A DNA stretch of 34,580 nt from positions 1 through 34,580 of the IMG/VR virus record IMGVR_UViG_2617270944_000003; one strand, given 5' to 3'. Position 1 is the stretch's first letter. Every line of letters starts with the position of its first letter. A program made the translations under genes and the position numbers. Shown here piece by piece: positions 21,381 through 34,417 of the stretch. The notes under the pieces were generated by a model, which saw only the letters and a program-made list of their open reading frames with translations, had not been told where the DNA came from and searched no databases. The DNA comes from a virus (taxonomy: Duplodnaviria; Heunggongvirae; Uroviricota; Caudoviricetes).

Positions 21381-22121
21381 TTACTCAATAGGTTCAAACT
21401 CATCCTGAGGAATCAGCGTCGATTGACAGGCTTGGCTTAGTACTCCTGATAATTTACATAATAACCGATAGTTATGAGGAGCATCATCGCTAATCTTTTC
21501 GACCGTTAAAGTGATTGATTTTGGATCATCCAATAACATCTTCTTGATATCATTACTTAAATACCTAGGGCAGTAACCAACGATTTCAGCTGGTTTATCT
21601 GCACGAACGACAACAGCATCCCCATCGTATTCATTTTGAAGATCCAAGCAAAGACGCAAAATTTGCCCCGGTTTCAATTCAGATACACGAGCATTAGCTA
21701 AGCTATTTAAGTAACCAAGTCCATGTAAGAAGAAAAAATGCTCAAAGTTACCATCAGAATCAACATCAATTTTTTTGAAAATCTGCAGCTGATCAGTGCT
21801 TCGTAAGCCTCCCGAGCGAGCAAGAATATCGATAGGATTTACCTTATCTTCTTCAAATCCAAGCCATTTAATGAAACTCGGATACTCTGGACGTCTCGGT
21901 GATAAAAGGCGATTTTTAAAAAGAGGAAACAATTCTTCCGAAACATAAGTTTCACGAACATCACTCATGCCGCTAAACTTTGTAAATTTAGTAGATTTAA
22001 GAGCACCTTTGGTATACCTGAAAACATACCCCGATTTGCGCTCTTGCAAGTTACCAACAACATGCCAGTCTCTGGTATCTGGTGCCTGCCATGCGACGTA
22101 AACGGAGTTTGTATTAGTCAT
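21381..22121 (-). CDS. HIRAN-domain protein (246 aa), second gene of a kinase-HIRAN operon; candidate defence/toxin-system component
   Basis: C-terminal signature ILRLCLDLQNEYDGDAVVV...EIVGYCPRYLSNDIKKMLLDD fits the HIRAN consensus (remembered pattern); ATG overlaps the kinase stop (ATGA); AT-rich. Confidence 0.55.
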   Translation of the reverse strand: MTNTNSVYVAWQAPDTRDWHVVGNLQERKSGYVFRYTKGALKSTKFTKFSGMSDVRETYVSEELFPLFKNRLLSPRRPEYPSFIKWLGFEEDKVNPIDILARSGGLRSTDQLQIFKKIDVDSDGNFEHFFFLHGLGYLNSLANARVSELKPGQILRLCLDLQNEYDGDAVVVRADKPAEIVGYCPRYLSNDIKKMLLDDPKSITLTVEKISDDAPHNYRLLCKLSGVLSQACQSTLIPQDEFEPIE

Positions 22122-23032
22122 TCTAGTAACCTTCTGCGATTTTCCATTACCATTAACGTTGCAAATCTACGTGCACTGTCGGATATACACGATGAAGGCA
22201 CTTGGTTAAACACATCTGTAATGGAATCTTCTGTTAAAACGCTCAACTTACCTAACCAATGGTCGCGAGCGGCAACTCTCCCTTCAACTGCATGTTGAAA
22301 TGCTTCAACGGTCAGCAAGGGCTTTTTATCAGTTTTTGCTTTGAATAGCTCAGAGCGAGCTTTTCTTACAAAACATGGGATTTGTCGATTTTTATCTTTA
22401 GTATTAAGCCGTTCGTTACGCTCATCATCTAACATCTCCCTTCCTAAACTAGCGGCATGATCGTATGTTGGACACAAAAACTGCTCACCAGTTTCATTGT
22501 TAAGCATGATCGCCCAATTTTCATGATGGCGATCTTGATTACTCACAAGTGCATCGAGCATCAAATATCCACAAAATACATCTGCTGCATTTAGCCCGGT
22601 TAGATCATATACACTCGGAGGAGGCTTGATAGATTCCCTATCCAAACAACCCAATACCCTTGTGACAGTGTGTTCTCTGACCCTTACCGGCTTTTCCCCG
22701 GCTTGTAAAGGCCCAGGATAATCGAATGTCGAACTGTGAAGCACTTCATTTCCCATTACCATCCGGAAACCAGATGGAATGATATTCTGAGTCACCACAC
22801 CGAATCGACCATTGTATCGCGCCAAATCATAGCTAGCATGTGGAATGTTAAGCAAATGACATAACTCAGCAGCACACTTTTCAGACCAATGCTCGCCAGT
22901 ACCTGGCCTAGAGTACTTAAACAACTGCAAATTTACAGTGTCATCGGAGAAATAGAACCAAAACTTCTCTTTGGTTCCTAACTGTTCAAGATCGTTAGCT
23001 ACGGGGCTAAGCTCTACCAATTGGTATGGCAT
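22118..23032 (-). CDS. HipA-like serine/threonine kinase (304 aa, core kinase domain only); candidate defence/toxin effector
   Basis: Motifs GTKEKF (HipA phosphate-binding loop-like) and SNQDRHHENWA (catalytic loop D-x-H-x-x-N); AGGGA RBS; AT-rich relative to the phage core. Confidence 0.6.
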   Translation of the reverse strand: MPYQLVELSPVANDLEQLGTKEKFWFYFSDDTVNLQLFKYSRPGTGEHWSEKCAAELCHLLNIPHASYDLARYNGRFGVVTQNIIPSGFRMVMGNEVLHSSTFDYPGPLQAGEKPVRVREHTVTRVLGCLDRESIKPPPSVYDLTGLNAADVFCGYLMLDALVSNQDRHHENWAIMLNNETGEQFLCPTYDHAASLGREMLDDERNERLNTKDKNRQIPCFVRKARSELFKAKTDKKPLLTVEAFQHAVEGRVAARDHWLGKLSVLTEDSITDVFNQVPSSCISDSARRFATLMVMENRRRLLE

Positions 23033-23184
23033 CTGACATCCCTGTTTAGCGGATTATGAATAAGTTAGGTTCCATTTTATCCAAACATTGTCAAATACTC
23101 TAAGATTTATTAGATGATAGAGCGATACTGTATGCATGTCCAGCAATCAAATCAATATATAACTCTTATATGACTTAGCGCGCG

Positions 23185-23205
23185 CTCGTATCCCCGCCAC
23201 GCCTG
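23185..23205 (-). other. Candidate cos (cohesive end) site
   Basis: Minus-strand ggcgtggcgggga matches the first 13 nt of the 186-type 19-nt cohesive end as remembered; sits in a 600-bp noncoding gap at the P2 cos position relative to Q. Confidence 0.3.
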
Positions 23206-23640
23206 CCCGCTTTGTGTAGTGGTTTTCATGCAGTTGCATAACATAAGCAAAAGCCCGTCAGAACTGGCAGGCTTCGACATAAACGATCCACTAGCGATCA
23301 TTCATTTTCATGCAGCATAGGTATGCACCAGAGTTACTTTGAGGTGCAATGGATGATACCTACAGATTTGCTACCCAAGGTCATGCTGAAAATCTATCGC
23401 ATCTGTATGATGCCGCGGACATAGCGAAATCTCCCCATGCAGTGACAAACTACTTGAGTAAATACTGTTGTGTTACCACAAGAAGAGATTTCAAAAGGAA
23501 AACAACGCTATGTTATCTAGTACATATAGCTATAAATGTCTTAATTTTAGCCAATACATTGAATTAAATGAAAAAATACTTTAGTTTGTATACTATTTTT
23601 TAGCGTTCAAGATTATGCAATTTTTTGGAGAGAACTATAA

Positions 23641-24609
23641 GTGGGATCTTTCAGTTTACTTGCATCACGACCAATACCAACTGTGCTAGAAACAAGACAG
23701 TTTAACTCAGTTAACGGCAGTGACGCCGAATCTTATGCAATGAGTCAATTCATTCTTGCTTGTAGAGGAGAGGGGCACTGGGGTTCCAGGGAAGACGACA
23801 ATTCAAAAATAGATTTAATATTATCCTTCGAACATCCATGGGCATCAAAAGAAAGAATGCTTATATTGTCGCAAGTTAAATCAGGGGCAACTTATGGTCA
23901 TTTATTAGAGAAAGGTTTTGTATTAAATTCGGCCGCAAAAAAAGCAGCCAAAAGGACAACTCACCATATATGTGTCGTTTGGGTTGACAGAACTAATCGT
24001 AAAGCATTTTGGGCCTATATACATCCAAACACTACCCTTAAAAACCAAACTTATGGAGAATATCACTTAATCACTCCGGCTACACGGTTTGACCTGGCTC
24101 GCTGTATGTCCATGGTACGTGCAGGTGAAACTGGAGCAAAAGGAATCCATGTAAGAAGAAGAAACTCACTACTTAATAATCGGCGAGCGTTTGTTAAAAA
24201 ACGTTATTCTGAACAGAAAGAAATCACATCTCCGGTGCTTGGGAAAATCGAGCTTACACGGCTGGGTTGGAGACATATGTTCAGAAAGAGTCGCAGAGAA
24301 GAAAACAAAGCAACGAGTTTGGACATTATTCCCTACTTGAGAAATTTACTAGTTCGGTTTCCTTCAACTCATGCTATTACTTCTTCTGATGTCCGTGATT
24401 ACGGCTGTTTTACTTACCAAAGAAGAGAGCACTTATTGAAATTTAATAATCTAGAGGTTACTTATGCCAAAGGAGAGGGAAAAAATAAAGTATGTGCTTA
24501 TATTCGTGTTATAGAAGAAATAAGGTATCCAAAAGATTGGACTAACGCGGTAATGCTATCACAGCAGGTTGAAAGACGAGTGGTTTTGAAGTCAGCATAT
24601 TATAAATAA
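23641..24609 (+). CDS. Hypothetical protein (322 aa), possible PD-(D/E)xK nuclease-like (DUF4365-like) N-terminal domain; candidate single-gene defence cargo
   Basis: GTG start after GGAGAG RBS (alternative ATG at 23740); N-terminal IDLILSFEH...LSQVKSG resembles a restriction-endonuclease-like motif; very AT-rich, basic C-terminal half. Confidence 0.45.
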   Translation: MGSFSLLASRPIPTVLETRQFNSVNGSDAESYAMSQFILACRGEGHWGSREDDNSKIDLILSFEHPWASKERMLILSQVKSGATYGHLLEKGFVLNSAAKKAAKRTTHHICVVWVDRTNRKAFWAYIHPNTTLKNQTYGEYHLITPATRFDLARCMSMVRAGETGAKGIHVRRRNSLLNNRRAFVKKRYSEQKEITSPVLGKIELTRLGWRHMFRKSRREENKATSLDIIPYLRNLLVRFPSTHAITSSDVRDYGCFTYQRREHLLKFNNLEVTYAKGEGKNKVCAYIRVIEEIRYPKDWTNAVMLSQQVERRVVLKSAYYK

Positions 24610-25194
24610 CGAGGCCGTTGGGAAGCCAGCACTTGCGCCCATGCTCTGCCAGATTCCGGTTTCGAATCGGTTCTCTGGCAATAATGCGGATAGCGTACTG
24701 GGCATCAGCCTTAGCTTTTGCACTCAACCCAACGACCAAGTGGTGAAGCATACTAGTAAAGAAACTTTAATTCTAGATGTTTTGAAGCAATTCTCACATC
24801 AAGTATTAATTTTTCTAAAGCAATGACCTAATGGTATGTCAGGCTTCAACGAAAATTGGCAACCAATCTAGATAACTGTACCTTTTCAAAAAACTGGTGC
24901 GTATCGTTAGTCTCCTTTCGCCGTTGTTCCAGTCTGGTCGCTTCAATAAAAAGCAAGGCCGCCGTACAGCAAAACTATATAATCATAGCTTAAGCCAAAT
25001 CACTCATCTAAGGTGTGGCTCCATTAGTAGTTTGAGCGCTAACAGCCCCTCTGGCGATAAAACTACTCAATACCTGGCACGAAACAAAATCTGGAAGTTA
25101 CTATTTTTTTGCCCATGACTAACGCCTCGCATGGCTCGTTGATCAACCTTGCTAGCGTCAGAATCAAGTCCTAACGCCAGCAACGTTCCTAAGC

Positions 25195-25383
25195 CTAACC
25201 GGGGAGATCCATTGAACGGTTGTACTCATGAGTACGGATTTTCGCCATTAACTCATCGGTCAGCTCCGAAACCCACTGGATAGCAAGCCGCTTCTCTTCA
25301 TCATCGCACTCACTAGCCGCTACAAGCTTAAGAAAAAAATCAATGCGCTGGAGCTTCAAAGACTCCAAAAAATAGTCCTGCAT
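25195..25383 (-). CDS. Small protein (62 aa) under a LexA box; candidate SOS-inducible antirepressor (Tum-like role)
   Basis: ATG at 25383 preceded by AGGAGG; near-consensus LexA box about 45 bp upstream. Confidence 0.45.
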   Translation of the reverse strand: MQDYFLESLKLQRIDFFLKLVAASECDDEEKRLAIQWVSELTDELMAKIRTHEYNRSMDLPG

Positions 25384-25424
25384 CTTTCCTCCTATGACAC
25401 CACACGCAATACTGTATGTATAAC

Positions 25425-25444
25425 CACTGTTTATATTTACAGTA
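25425..25444 (-). promoter_or_regulatory. LexA (SOS) box CTGT-N8-ACAG
   Basis: cactgtttatatttacagta fits the CTGT-N8-ACAG LexA consensus with AT-rich spacer; a partial second site (tactgtatgtataa) lies next to it. Confidence 0.6.
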
Positions 25445-25537
25445 TATAATAATCTTACTGATGTAAAACGTTTTTTTTACGCTTATCAGCCTGATATGCC
25501 TGGTATTATTAAGAGCACGAATTGTTAACCAGCGTAA

Positions 25538-27910
25538 TTAATACAGGTTCCGCCACTTATCATCTTCCTGCAAACGCTGGTTCCGATAGAAGATACGCAG
25601 GCCTGCTCCTGACGGAATACTGCCGCCGCGAAGGAGTAAATCGACCTCTTTCTCGCTGCCATCAAATCCTCTGGATTTCAGTTCATAGACAAGCTGCTGT
25701 CGTTGATGGTCTGTAATTCGCTGTTTGTAGTCTCTACGCCGTTTCGGTTTCACCAGACGTAACCTTGCAGCCAATTCCCGGCGCTTCTTTTTGTTCATAC
25801 TGTGCAGGTAATCGTGCAACACCTTGTCATCCATGCGGGTAATGTCCGTTCTGGGGTCCCCATCAGCTGATTTATCTTTCTCCTGTTGGTTCAAATTTTC
25901 AGCAAGGGGACAGTTATTGCCACGAGTCCAAGGGGCGCAAGCGCCCTGGTCGGCTGCCGCCTCCTGAACGTCAACGGCCTTACGAACCATTTTCCACTTC
26001 ACTGCATGAGTGCAGATCTTGCCCTCTGCAATGGGTGACCAGATGCCATAAATACGAATGCCGTGATCGCCATAGGCGGTCGGCTCTTCGTTGATTTCAT
26101 AAGCGGTTCTGATCAGGTGATATTTGCGGGGAACCAGTACGCCGCCCTGCTTCATGATGTAGGTGGCAAAACAACCAGCATCAGCAGCAGCCAGGATTGC
26201 ATCAAGGCGCGGGTTATCCAGTACCGGCGCACCTGCTTTTTTGTCCCCCTGTTGCCTTGCCGCCTGACCAGCCAGCAATCGCAGTTCACGGTAAGCCTGA
26301 CGCCCCGGAATGCCAAAGAAGCGGAATTGCTGAACACGATGCAGAGACGCCCAGGCATTAACGTATTCAGCATTATCACGCAGGGATTTCCCCGTTTCCT
26401 TGCTGATCTCGCCAGCCAGACCACGCCCGTCAATGTTCTTACTGATGTATTTCGCGATGTAGCTTGTTGGCGTACCTTTGCGCGGGTTAATCAACTCAGA
26501 CTTAAAGCGCGGCCCAGTGTTATTGCCCAGTTCCTCGCGGTCTTCACGGATGGCAAACTTACGCAGTAATGCAGTGATGGCGCGGCGGTCTTTTTTGCGC
26601 ATAAAACACAACAGGTGCCAGTGAACTGTACCGTCATGATGCGGCTCAGCCACCCGCACGCCATACCACCGCAATCCGGCTTTGTGCATCGCCTTACGAA
26701 ATGCAGCAAACATGCCGACCAGATAATCACTGCTTTGTCTTACCGTCGCATTTGTCCAAGTTGGGTTGGGCCTGCCATTATTTAGCGTGGAATGGAAACG
26801 TGACGGACAGGTGATGGTGTAGAAAACGGCGCAGTCACCGCGCATTTCCGCGATAAGCTCCAGGCCTTTAACACAGGCCATCATCTCATTGCGGCGATGC
26901 GCAGGGTTGCTGCTGCTGGCGTTTACCACATCCTCCATGTCCAGCGTGTCGCCGTCTTCGTTCACCAGTTCATGAGAACGAAAAAACTCCAGCGACTTAC
27001 GGCGCTGCTCACGTTTATGCATCACGGCTTCATAGCTGACATAGGGAGATGCTTTTTTGCTGACCAGGCAGACAGCACGCAACTGCTCTTCCCGCCATTC
27101 GCAACGCATCTTCCATAATTTCCGGTACCACCAGTCAGCGCACAACATACGCGCCAGCGAACCCGGAATGAGTTCATAGGGCACGGGTTTACGGCGGTTT
27201 CTTTTCCGGCGGAGTTGCTCAAACGCAGGCGGGATGACATCCAGACGCAGGGTTTCCGCTGCCACCTTTTCCCATGTCTTGCGGATTTCTTCTGGCTTAA
27301 CGTCATCGGTGACATACAAATCGCCACAAGCTGCATCAAGGCACATGCTCATATGCGCAGCTACCAGGGTGGACAGGCGTTTCACCTGATCCTGACTCAT
27401 TTCAGGCAGGATCAGCAGGCCGTCCAGCCCTTCATGGCTTGCCATAAAGCGAAAAGAAGTGGATAGCTGACAGTCGCGTACATGCTCCAGCCGTTCCAGA
27501 CATGGCTTAATCGTCTCACGCAAATAGCGGGAATAAGCCTTTGGCCTGCCCAGGCTGCTGAAGTATTCAATACGTTGCATCAGTGGCTTGCTGATATGGG
27601 AAGGCTGGGCATTAACGTCCGCCAGAATGACCATATCTGGATTAAAACGCTGCTGCTCATGCGCCAGCTTTGCCCGACTAATGAGCTTATCCTGCTCCAT
27701 TTCGCGCTGGACAGGATCACGGGATTCATTAAAGAAATAACGCTCCCAGACCTGATCACTCAGTGCCTCGCGGCGCAGCTGTTCCTGCTCGTTATCGGCA
27801 GCGTACAGAGCGATCAGGTTTGAAAGCGCAGAAACTGAAGATTGCTCTTCCGTCTCTACGTAAGGATTGATTGCTTTTTTCTCAGCATTCCAGGAATAGC
27901 TGTAGTTCAT
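25538..27910 (-). CDS. A: Replication initiation endonuclease A (rolling-circle type)
   Basis: ~790-aa ORF at the P2 gene A position; first ATG at 27910 overlaps the upstream stop (TAATG); the longer TTG-initiated form (27961) was not adopted. Confidence 0.8.
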
Positions 27911-28740
27911 TACGCAATCTCCAGTTCGAGCTGTGAAGGCTGCAAACCATTCGACAGCCAATCAGAAACTGAAGGTGGGCGAACAGCTTCAATTGCACCT
28001 TTTAAAATTGCGCAACGGTTTTTCAGAATGACAGCTTTCAGCTCCTTTTCCGTCAGATTGCGCGAATACTCAGCCTCCTGAATAGCCCGCGTCAGCTCAG
28101 GATATTTGCTATTAAATTTGGGGACATTGCAGGCAAGATTTGTACTGTCGGCAGTCGCCAGTGGGTAATTTCCCAACACACGACCGTCAAGCATGCGCAA
28201 ACCATGAACAGCTGTTTTGAAATTGTGTCGGCAATAAATTGCTTCAAAAGCGTCCTGCATACGACGATGCCAGTGCGCAGTTCTGATAGCCGCATATTCA
28301 CCAGACGATCCAAAGCAGACACGAGGCCATTCACGACATAGCTCGATAAGCCGATCGATTGACTCGTGCAGATGCCAGACGGGAGTTGCCTTCCCGTAGA
28401 ACATTTTCGGAACTTCGTTTATCAGGGCATCATTGTCACGTTCACCTCCGTCCACAACATCAGGAATGACAAAAAAAGCGACCTTAGGATGGTGGTAATA
28501 GTTCAGGAGCCATTTATAAAAATCACTCCAGTTAATTTTTAGCCCACGCACCCATGCAGAAAATGCGCCGTTATCAATGCCGACGACCTGAGCGTGCTGA
28601 ATGGACGCCGCAATCTGATCTGGTCGTACATAGGAGACGAAAGCGCCAGCTCCGCTCACCGCAATACGATGAACGTCGCCAGCACTTCCCCAGACAGGCG
28701 TCCCATGGAAATGATGAATTCCGTGGTGCATTTCTTTCAC
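27910..28740 (-). CDS. Conserved hypothetical protein (about 275 aa), translationally coupled between Dam and A; function unknown (very tentatively TGT/DpdA-like)
   Basis: Start GTG 28740 or ATG 28731; [10 protein letters not shown] weakly recalls the DSGGF motif of tRNA-guanine transglycosylase-family proteins. Confidence 0.55.
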
Positions 28741-31532: not shown

Positions 31533-32165
31533 ATGATACAGGTAAAGGTTGGAGAGAATACAGGGGGAAGAGAGGCTATCCATAGACTAATGGCAGCCTA
31601 TGATTTCAAGTCCAGACAGCAACTTTGCGATCACTTAGGCGCATCAAAAAGCACCATGGCAAACAGATACTTAAGAGATAGTTTTCCTGCAGAGTGGGTG
31701 ATTCAGTGCGCCTTGGAAACAGGAGTTTCTTTACTGTGGCTAACCACCGGACAGGGGGAGCCAGGTCCAAACATTGAACCTAAAAAAAATATCAATTCCG
31801 TGAACTCCAGCAAGGTTGTACCTCTTTCTGAACTAGTATCTCCTGAAATTGACAAGGCGACTCTCAACGGTGGTTTATTGGTCGATGCTGGAAAAGCAAT
31901 CATTGATAGCAGCATACTCCCCTCAGACTCAAGCAACCTACTGCTGGTGACTACTTCTGGTGATTCTTATTTAATAGATCGCAACCAAACACCACCAGTA
32001 AATGGTATGTGGTTAGTCGATATCGACGGGATAAAAAGCATCGTTAAATTGACTCGACTCCCGGGAAACAAATTAGTAGTGCATCAGGATGATTCATCGT
32101 TTGAGTGCGGTCTGGATGACATTGAGGTAGTAGGCCGCGCACTGAAAATCATTAAGAGCCTTTGA
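31533..32165 (+). CDS. cI: CI-like immunity repressor (phage 186 CI family)
   Basis: N-terminal HTH region similar to remembered 186 CI (...YDFKSRQQLCDHLGASKSTMANRYLRD...ALETGVSLLWLTTGQGE); directly upstream of int. Confidence 0.75.
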   Translation: MIQVKVGENTGGREAIHRLMAAYDFKSRQQLCDHLGASKSTMANRYLRDSFPAEWVIQCALETGVSLLWLTTGQGEPGPNIEPKKNINSVNSSKVVPLSELVSPEIDKATLNGGLLVDAGKAIIDSSILPSDSSNLLLVTTSGDSYLIDRNQTPPVNGMWLVDIDGIKSIVKLTRLPGNKLVVHQDDSSFECGLDDIEVVGRALKIIKSL

Positions 32166-33196: not shown

Positions 33197-34417
33197 ATGG
33201 ATATTAAAAACAAAGTCAATAAAGAAAAGTTATTTGAGAACCATTTAAACTCATTATTAAAACAAGTCATTTCCGAACCAAAATTAAACCCTCCACTTAT
33301 AGTACATAGAGATATAATAAGTGACTTCACTGAACGTTGCGATAAGTATCTAAAAACAATAATTAAATACAAAAGCAACAATAAAGATGGGATGCCGAAT
33401 TTTGATGAATTAATCAGCAAAGTTAAGAACATTCAAAATGGAATAACATTATCACTTGAAAGTTTTTTATCAGGTGATATCAAGTCAGCATATGACCACT
33501 TTGATAAAACATTCTCTGATAACTCAACAATCCAACACATACATCGCATCACTACTCCACTCAGTAGCATTTGCAATCATAAAAAACCATTATTTCGAGT
33601 TAGAAAAAGTGAAAATCCTCTAACGTCAAGAGATGAAATTTTCCATATTCCATTCTCCAATAGACATTTTGTTAGTGCACAAAGATATTCAGTCGCTGGC
33701 TTACCATGTTTATATCTTGGCACTTCTGTTTATGTTTGTTGGCAGGAGATGGAAAAACCAGATTTTGACAAGCTTTTTATTTCATCATTTACTACCAGTG
33801 AAACTGAATATAAAGTCTTAAACTTTGCATCACAGCTTTTGTTACATCCCTCACCAAATTACGCTGACGAAAATAAACTAGCCGAAACAAATAGAGTAAA
33901 GGCCTCTTATCTCATTTTCTGGCCTTTAATTATTGCATGTAATTATTTAAAAAATCATCGTTCTGCAACATTCATACAAGAGTACATTATCCCTAATTTG
34001 TTGATGCAATGGATTAGTAGAAAAACTTACTCGAAAATTGTCGGTGTAGCTTACTTCTCTACAAAAATGCCTAATTCACGATTAAGTAACCGCTCAATAA
34101 ATGTTGTATTTCCACCCAAAGTTACATATGAACAAACGGTAAAACAAAATTTTTGCCCTAAACTCTCCACATTATTCGACTTTACGCCACCTATTTCGTG
34201 GCAGGTCTTAAAAACATTAGATCATTCATCAATAACAGAAAATTCAATAGAATTGATGATGTCAAAGAGATATCTTCAAAGTCAAGAAAAACTGTCTGGA
34301 ATTAAAAACTTCGAAGAGGACATTGTAAAACTATACCCCTTAACTGATTTTTACAAACTCGAAAGAAGTATTGATATGCTATTTGAATATAAAAAGATAG
34401 ATAACCCCATACTATAA
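33197..34417 (+). CDS. RES-domain protein (406 aa) with extra N- and C-terminal regions; orphan toxin/defence candidate
   Basis: Central segment SAQRYSVAGLPCLYLGTSVYVCWQEM fits the RES-domain signature (R-[WY]-[NS]..G.P.LYL..S......E); extremely AT-rich; no adjacent antitoxin-like ORF. Confidence 0.55.
   Translation: MDIKNKVNKEKLFENHLNSLLKQVISEPKLNPPLIVHRDIISDFTERCDKYLKTIIKYKSNNKDGMPNFDELISKVKNIQNGITLSLESFLSGDIKSAYDHFDKTFSDNSTIQHIHRITTPLSSICNHKKPLFRVRKSENPLTSRDEIFHIPFSNRHFVSAQRYSVAGLPCLYLGTSVYVCWQEMEKPDFDKLFISSFTTSETEYKVLNFASQLLLHPSPNYADENKLAETNRVKASYLIFWPLIIACNYLKNHRSATFIQEYIIPNLLMQWISRKTYSKIVGVAYFSTKMPNSRLSNRSINVVFPPKVTYEQTVKQNFCPKLSTLFDFTPPISWQVLKTLDHSSITENSIELMMSKRYLQSQEKLSGIKNFEEDIVKLYPLTDFYKLERSIDMLFEYKKIDNPIL

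Follow-up and report, generated by a model that had tools for sequence, protein, structure and literature searches.

A probable LexA-controlled, tumA-type antirepressor gene in a Fels-2-like prophage of Escherichia coli

Induction of the 186 prophage is driven by the LexA-regulated p95–tum unit (PMC7708051), and the Tum protein is described in PMC3121763 as binding the CI repressor and preventing it from binding its operator. The 186 record (NC_001317) places p95 after gene A and gives it as TTCACA, an 18-bp spacer, and TACTGT, the LexA site starting with the six bases of the −10 hexamer; in the same record p95, with this weak −10 element, drives SOS-dependent transcription of the SOS operon. 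There is a single LexA box, and orf97 follows tum behind a partial terminator. The 186 protein also has internal starts and carries a fused DinI-like C-terminal domain.

In Fels-2 and PSP3, the tum region is split by a stop codon, and PMC3121763 assigns the antirepressor to the upstream gene and describes the other half as dinI-like. The PSP3 record lists a tumA of 60 aa, annotated as "similar to 5' end 186 tum; UV induction of prophage," and a DinI-like tumB, and in Fels-2 the gene STM2728 lies between gene A and a DinI-family gene, with the record noting similarity to PSP3 TumB. Genetic evidence comes from DuoHS, a prophage of E. coli HS, in which tum (ECHS_RS04495, WP_001154431.1) sits between the replication endonuclease gene and a DinI-like gene, ECHS_RS04500, 10 nt downstream. 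There, deletion of tum and lexA(Ind−), which encodes a non-cleavable LexA, each abolish mitomycin C-induced lysis and virion formation (PMC12055606); according to the supplement of this study (the Phollow paper), ECHS_RS04495 is the locus that was deleted as "tum."

Small LexA-controlled antirepressors are found outside this family as well. GfoA, GftA, and FsoA of the Gifsy and Fels-1 prophages and AntC of N15 bind non-cleavable phage repressors and are often encoded in an operon with a dinI homologue (PMC3121763). These proteins belong to lambdoid and N15 phages with other repressor families, and they are likened to the gene considered here by description, not by sequence. At the level of the operator, a parallel exists in the colicin genes, where two overlapping SOS boxes are reported to be bound by two LexA dimers, an arrangement that represses very tightly and leaves basal expression undetectable (PMC2994835).

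We analyzed a stretch of 34,580 nucleotides (the window) that belongs to the P2/186 family (Peduoviridae) and is a Fels-2-like prophage integrated in E. coli. An earlier note on this DNA had pointed to a near-consensus LexA box and a partial second site about 45 bp upstream of a 62-aa ORF, just downstream of replication gene A, and had proposed an SOS-controlled antirepressor. The elements that it named are all present: a box matching the consensus at 17/20 positions (25425–25444), an overlapping second box (25410–25429, 16.8 bits), and the ORF itself at 25195–25383 on the minus strand, with its strong AGGAGG at 25393–25388. The distance of the ORF from the first box, measured from the promoter-proximal edge of that box to the ATG, is 41 nt, which bears out the earlier figure, and gene A ends 154 nt before the ATG. 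It is very likely that the ORF is the tum (tumA-type) antirepressor gene of a Fels-2/186-like, P2-family E. coli prophage, SOS-controlled through LexA, and we refer to it as tum below. On the minus strand, the order is gene A, TTTACA, a 17-bp spacer, TACTGTAAATATAAACAGTG, the overlapping CAGTGGTTATACATACAGTA, AGGAGG, and the tum ATG at 25383. The features are as follows.

25538–27961, minus strand: gene A, replication endonuclease of the Phage_GPA type, ending 154 nt upstream of the tum ATG.
25462–25467, minus strand: putative −35 hexamer TTTACA, separated by 17 bp from TACTGT downstream and assigned after the model of 186 p95.
25446–25441, minus strand: alternative −10 hexamer TATACT, with a 15-bp spacer.
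25439–25444, minus strand: putative −10 hexamer TACTGT, the left arm of LexA box 1, proposed from 186 p95.
25425–25444, no strand assigned: LexA box 1, promoter-distal in the transcript sense, TACTGTAAATATAAACAGTG on the minus strand; 17/20 to consensus, 23.5 bits.
25410–25429, no strand assigned: candidate LexA box 2, CAGTGGTTATACATACAGTA on the minus strand; 16.8 bits, third best in the window.
25388–25393, minus strand: Shine–Dalgarno sequence AGGAGG, 4 nt before the tum ATG.
25195–25383, minus strand: probable tum (tumA-type), 62 aa, ATG start; phrog_698 (E = 1e-36), 90–93% identity to Fels-2-group copies.

The 62-aa ORF is a real gene under purifying selection, with dN/dS values of 0.05–0.16 at dS values of 0.6–1.3 against six homologues. 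A tblastn search with it among 50,697 phage records matched 66, from phages of Klebsiella, Escherichia, Salmonella, Yersinia, and Cronobacter, and its homologues in a large protein collection fall into 486 clusters across Enterobacterales. It follows gene A directly, on the same strand and with its own putative promoter, an order that is shared by 186, PSP3, Fels-2, and DuoHS, and the GGAGG of its ribosome binding site is unchanged in 11/11 aligned tum upstream regions. The AlphaFold2 model of the protein, made from a 23-sequence alignment, is a helical hairpin (pLDDT 89) with helices at residues 2–23 and 28–58; the conserved Cys26 sits in the turn of the hairpin, and the C-terminal tail is the variable, low-confidence part.

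A plus-strand ORF of 44 aa at 25149–25283 was considered and rejected, as it is without support and conservation there tracks the minus-strand frame. In public annotation, members of the tum family are labeled "hypothetical protein" or, wrongly, "Levan regulatory protein," and phrog_698 is of unknown function in PHROGs. Many gene callers extend the tum ORF upstream to 87–109 aa, across the LexA boxes and the promoter.

The identification is linked most directly to DuoHS. DuoHS tum is likewise 62 aa long, the two proteins are identical at 55/60 positions (92%), and the 160 bp upstream of the genes are identical at 157/160, including both LexA boxes, the −35 hexamer, and the ribosome binding site. 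The window gene also lies directly after gene A. The two loci differ downstream, where the window is without the DinI-like gene of DuoHS, and in the tail of the protein, which reads DVIS in DuoHS versus DLPG in the window; the CI proteins of the two prophages are 44% identical. Fels-2 STM2728 is 90% identical to the window protein and has the same dual LexA box. PSP3 TumA occupies the same position and is a homologue at the level of profiles, falling in phrog_1993 versus phrog_698 for the window protein, and the one LexA box of PSP3 is near-perfect (28.9 bits). The tumB gene is present in Fels-2 and PSP3 but not in the window. The proposal that a LexA-repressed antirepressor acts here in a 186-type induction circuit is supported by the 92% identity to DuoHS tum and by the near-identical upstream sequence. 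The tum module was already known and is genetically validated in DuoHS, and in this respect the finding is correct but ordinary.

The one part of the earlier proposal that did not survive concerns the length of the ORF, from which it was argued that the product may be a small antirepressor of a distinct kind. Over residues 1 to ~50, the alignment of the protein with the N-terminal half of 186 Tum contains no gaps. By profile and synteny, the protein is a distant yet collinear homologue of PSP3 TumA and of the 186 Tum N terminus, which is the antirepressor half of that protein. The 186 protein is longer (146 aa) because a DinI-like domain, which the window ORF lacks, is fused to it; its DinI match lies at residues 72–142, outside the part homologous to the window ORF, and Fels-2-type phages encode the DinI-like part separately as tumB. 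No Pfam or NCBIfam match to the DinI family (PF06183) was found in the window ORF. Standalone 186-type proteins of 63 aa, to which the window protein likewise aligns gaplessly over residues 1 to ~50, are already labeled "Tum protein" in NCBI.

The homology to Tum rests on profiles and synteny because pairwise BLASTP of the window ORF against 186 Tum and PSP3 TumA returns no alignment; identity to 186 Tum is about 19%, and tblastn among the 50,697 phage records found neither 186 nor PSP3. The window ORF matches phrog_698 (1e-36), phrog_8554 (8e-8), and phrog_1993 (5e-3), the last of which is the PSP3 TumA/186 Tum-N family, and residues 1–70 of 186 Tum match phrog_1993 (1.5e-23), phrog_8554 (3e-12), and phrog_698 (6e-6). 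An hhalign comparison of the two family alignments gives E = 4e-4 for residues 5–42 against 5–42, with a probability of only 35%. In a joint MAFFT alignment of 23 sequences, gapless from 1 to ~50, residues M1, E7, R13, L20, C26, A34, E40, and K48 are conserved, and the alignment yields the motif (I/L)A(I/L)xx(V/I)(S/A)E in addition to the conserved Cys26. Among curated families, no Pfam, NCBIfam, or PADLOC model covers the protein, that is, the Tum N-terminal domain. A sequence-profile search of the PDB gave no match, and Foldseek with the AlphaFold2 model against the PDB gave nothing below E = 1.6, the hits being only generic helical hairpins and designed bundles. A sub-threshold Pfam match to PPP1R21_C (E = 0.088) was dismissed as chance for a coiled helix.

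The operator is the second element of the argument, and here a trivial explanation has to be weighed, namely that the LexA-like site is a chance AT-rich palindrome or that it serves gene A or the cargo region, not the small ORF. The CTGT-N8-ACAG core by itself is weak evidence for a LexA site, as it occurs once in the window against 0.42 expected and is present in 35/100 shuffles, and a generic promoter scan called no sigma-70 promoter at tum. The full-length match is another matter. The 20-nt consensus TACTGTATATATATACAGTA, with up to three mismatches, occurs once in the window and in none of 100 shuffles. The scoring with a LexA weight matrix that had been suggested used a custom matrix built from 29 E. 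coli sites, not a curated one; with it, box 1 (cactgtttatatttacagta at 25425–25444) scores 23.5 bits, the top 20-mer of the 34.6-kb window, and outscores 23/29 training sites, versus maxima in 200 shuffles that average 11.5 bits and reach 20.3 at most. The ranking in the window is box 1 (23.5), a site at 23126–23145 (19.8), box 2 (16.8), and then a fourth best of 9.3 bits. Moreover, both boxes are conserved in position in phages of Escherichia, Salmonella, Klebsiella, and Yersinia whose flanks have diverged, 186 p95 with the same weak −10 element is annotated as an SOS-dependent promoter, and on the plus strand there is, past the boxes, merely the antisense of the end of gene A. We therefore give a chance site, or one that serves a different gene, practically no weight, and take the boxes to be the operator of tum.

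Box 2 overlaps box 1 by 5 bp, with the centers 15 bp apart, and the two lie 26 and 41 nt upstream of the ATG, respectively. The score of box 2 falls within the range of the training sites (12.4–27.7 bits), so that it is plausible as a LexA box in its own right. Box 1 has the same sequence in Fels-2, in DuoHS, and in further relatives, and it is retained despite diverged flanks in SopEphi, Kp phi4.1, and Yp MLG42. In an alignment of 11 upstream regions, box 2 falls in register with the lone LexA box of 186 and PSP3; the weaker, promoter-proximal box of the Fels-2 group corresponds in position to the one box of 186. A pair of boxes, offset by 15 bp, characterizes the Fels-2 group, including the window and DuoHS, and a single strong box (23–29 bits) is found in 186, PSP3, ESSI-2-type phages, and a tumB-less metagenomic lineage. 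When related loci were scanned (2–9 kb each), hits of at least 12 bits occurred solely just upstream of tum, except for a box at a HipA-like operon, an extra hit in the window and in two related prophages (L011 and L012).

The hexamers of the tum promoter are assigned by analogy with 186 p95, where, as we propose for the window, a LexA-repressed promoter after gene A has the left arm of a LexA box as its −10 element. The putative −35 hexamer TTTACA is kept in 7/7 Fels-2-group upstream regions. The generic scan missed the promoter because the −10 hexamer TACTGT fails its consensus criteria; a generic terminator scan found a weak terminator-like site only, at 24970–24958. With this assignment the LexA operator would overlap the tum promoter, and LexA would be expected to bind at both boxes.

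The operators of colicin genes likewise consist of two 20-bp LexA boxes that share 5 bp (CAGTG). The dual-box operator of the window, over about 42 bp, is 84–86% identical, without gaps, to sequences directly before colicin genes on hundreds of small Col plasmids (the stretches compared were window 25405–25450, L014 1497–1538, and L015 1501–1543). The gene downstream of the colicin operator is unrelated to tum, and in colicin promoters the −10 element is separate and just precedes the boxes, in contrast to the window, where box 1 appears to contain it. By inference from the colicin genes, the Fels-2-type tum promoter may be held off more tightly than a promoter with a single box. The likeness of the two operators may reflect either shared ancestry or convergence on a site for two LexA dimers.

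At its 3′ end, the locus departs from most of its relatives. A tblastn search with Fels-2 TumB (E ≤ 1) found no DinI-like coding sequence anywhere in the window; the same search at L012, an E. coli prophage with a parental-type locus, gave a 100% match. Relative to L012 and Fels-2, the window lacks the stretch that runs from the last three codons of tumA to the stop of tumB (compared stretches: window 25191–25203, L012 3910–4161). The tumB gene is present in Fels-2, DuoHS, SopEphi, and most relatives. In the window, the operon consists of tum alone, a tumA-only arrangement and not the split tumA–tumB operon of the Fels-2/PSP3 type, and directly behind the stop codon lies the hairpin that comes after tumB in tumB-carrying relatives:

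25145–25187, minus strand: conserved stem-loop of 18 bp, right after the tum stop, from folding and covariation.

In an alignment of six lineages, 97% of the cells of this stem-loop are paired and 4/18 pairs are compensatory, versus 28–45% pairing in slid controls. The G–U pairs favor the sense strand of tum, and no U-tract lies behind the stem. The stem-loop may be the functional counterpart of the 186 terminator t95a or may stabilize the mRNA; an Rfam search of 22900–25700 (E ≤ 1) gave no match.

The protein ends in DLPG in place of DVIN or DVIS, and its last three residues differ from those of Fels-2 and DuoHS. A simple deletion of tumB in one strain was considered and was dropped after the same tumB-less tail and hairpin were found in further loci (L019–L025, metagenomic and Raoultella), which have no tumB, a DLPS or DLSS tail, the hairpin, and a single LexA box. 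Because these loci share the tail and hairpin, the window locus looks like a recombinant, a mosaic in which a promoter and 5′ part of the Fels-2/DuoHS type have been joined to the 3′ end of the tumB-less lineage. The exact arrangement of the window occurs in 4/5426 complete E. coli genomes, at 99.5% identity.

These features invite the reading that tum is a non-working relic, in which the loss of tumB and the changed C terminus cripple induction and leave the prophage poorly or not SOS-inducible. The missing tumB, the three altered residues, and the rarity of the arrangement are what such a relic might look like. We nevertheless consider it improbable. Residues 1–58 are intact and under purifying selection, and the alteration falls in the tail, where the protein varies and the model has low confidence. 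The DLP(S/G) tail and hairpin also occur naturally in the tumB-less lineage, and ESSI-2-type phages have tumA without a dinI gene. Further, the upstream gene of PSP3 alone is reported to have antirepressor activity (PMC3121763), and in DuoHS induction is abolished by deleting the 62-aa gene alone (PMC12055606). A functional tumA-type antirepressor thus remains the reading that we favor.

The presumed target of Tum is the immunity repressor, encoded elsewhere in the window:

31533–32165, plus strand: cI immunity repressor, 186 type, presumed Tum target (PF07022 Phage_CI_repr and PF16452 Phage_CI_C).

This CI is 33% identical to 186 CI (E = 5e-36) and 44% identical to DuoHS CI, and the window has a switch of the 186 type, with CI, an ORF in the position of Apl, CII (PF06892), and integrase. 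By its domains, CI is a 186-type repressor, presumably one that RecA does not cleave, and the presumed partner of Tum. Direct binding of Tum to CI in this phage is proposed by analogy, the biochemical demonstration being for 186 Tum only (Shearwin 1998, cited in PMC3121763). The induction mechanism would run as follows. In the lysogen, two LexA dimers would occupy the two overlapping SOS boxes, covering the −10 element and the transcript start, and this occupancy would keep the tum promoter shut. Upon DNA damage, RecA would be activated, LexA would cleave itself, and the tum promoter would fire. The small helical-hairpin Tum protein would then be made and bind the 186-type CI, which in its Tum-bound form would release the lytic promoter, allowing lytic growth of the prophage.

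It could be objected that the 62-aa protein is SOS-induced but has some other role, such as modulation of RecA or LexA in the manner of DinI, division inhibition, or an anti-phage function, and that induction proceeds by another route. The objection has three sources. First, the biochemical demonstration of Tum–CI binding concerns the 186 protein. Second, the family is without curated annotation. Third, Tum is 87–93% identical across phages whose CI proteins are 38–95% identical to that of the window, which is unexpected for a strictly cognate pair of repressor and antirepressor; the figures are 92% for Tum and 44% for CI between the window and DuoHS, and 93% and 38% between the window and Kp ST340-VIM1phi10.2. 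The last of these points has a possible answer, as the CI proteins of the window and DuoHS share ~77% identity in the N-terminal DNA-binding domain, versus ~30% in the rest of the protein, and this could explain the conservation of Tum. Within 186 Tum, moreover, the homology of the protein lies with the antirepressor half and not with the DinI half. Finally, in Extended Data Fig. 1 of PMC12055606, DuoHS deleted for tum fails to replicate lytically although the SOS reporter of its host remains responsive, which argues that Tum acts specifically in the prophage switch. We thus hold a different role to be very improbable and retain that of an antirepressor directed at CI.

The same conservation suggests that Tum, facing divergent CI proteins, contacts a conserved surface of CI and could act across immunity types. 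If so, one SOS-induced Tum could cross-induce co-resident, heteroimmune P2-like prophages, and the tumB-less, dual-box operon could be a deliberately tight, DinI-free version of the induction switch. This broader view, of a broadly acting, cross-inducing Tum, an SOS regulon that extends beyond tum, and a tight switch free of DinI, is speculative, and we think it rather unlikely as it stands.

In general, the locus has little new biology to offer, as a known SOS induction module of Fels-2/186-type prophages has been re-identified, and the value lies in annotation. The sequence of the tum locus was matched in 1260/5426 complete E. coli genomes, and, for a very common class of prophages in enterobacteria, tum would decide whether DNA damage and antibiotics can induce them. 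Particular to the window are the apparent tumB-less mosaic, the colicin-like dual operator, and a third LexA-like box before a HipA-like/HIRAN operon.

Several observations concern other parts of the window. Positions 23175–23242 match the ends of linear P2-like genome records (P2, SI22, S164, and Yersinia phages), and within them GGCGTGGCGGGGATACGAG resembles the P2 cohesive end; this stretch is probably the cos site. With cos at this position, the HipA-like/HIRAN pair and a 322-aa ORF would flank it, in variable cargo regions. The latter ORF (plus strand, 23641–24609; from 23740 in RefSeq) is carried on a 1782-bp insertion, relative to L012, at 23337–25118, between the 3′ hairpin of tum and the cos region, and no Pfam, NCBIfam, or PADLOC family matches it. 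The ORF and tum are convergent, and SOS-driven tum transcription would therefore run antisense into it unless terminated. A 276-aa ORF on the minus strand (27910–28740) lies between gene A and a dam methylase gene and is absent from this place in the related prophage L011, and an AT-rich ORF of 406 aa on the plus strand (33197–34417), just past the integrase gene, is possibly cargo at the attachment-site end; neither has a Pfam match.

The HipA-like gene (22118–23032, minus strand) adjoins a HIRAN-domain gene (21381–22121, minus strand), and the pair matches the PADLOC candidate defense system PDC-M03 (E = 2e-122 and 3e-93). About 94 bp upstream of the HipA-like gene is the third LexA-like box, TACTGTATGCATGTCCAGCA (23126–23145), which at 19.8 bits is the second best in the window and which is conserved in L012, a related prophage of E. 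coli, where it scores higher (22.8 bits). This conservation suggests that SOS control may also apply to the cargo operon, which lies between cos and the portal gene.
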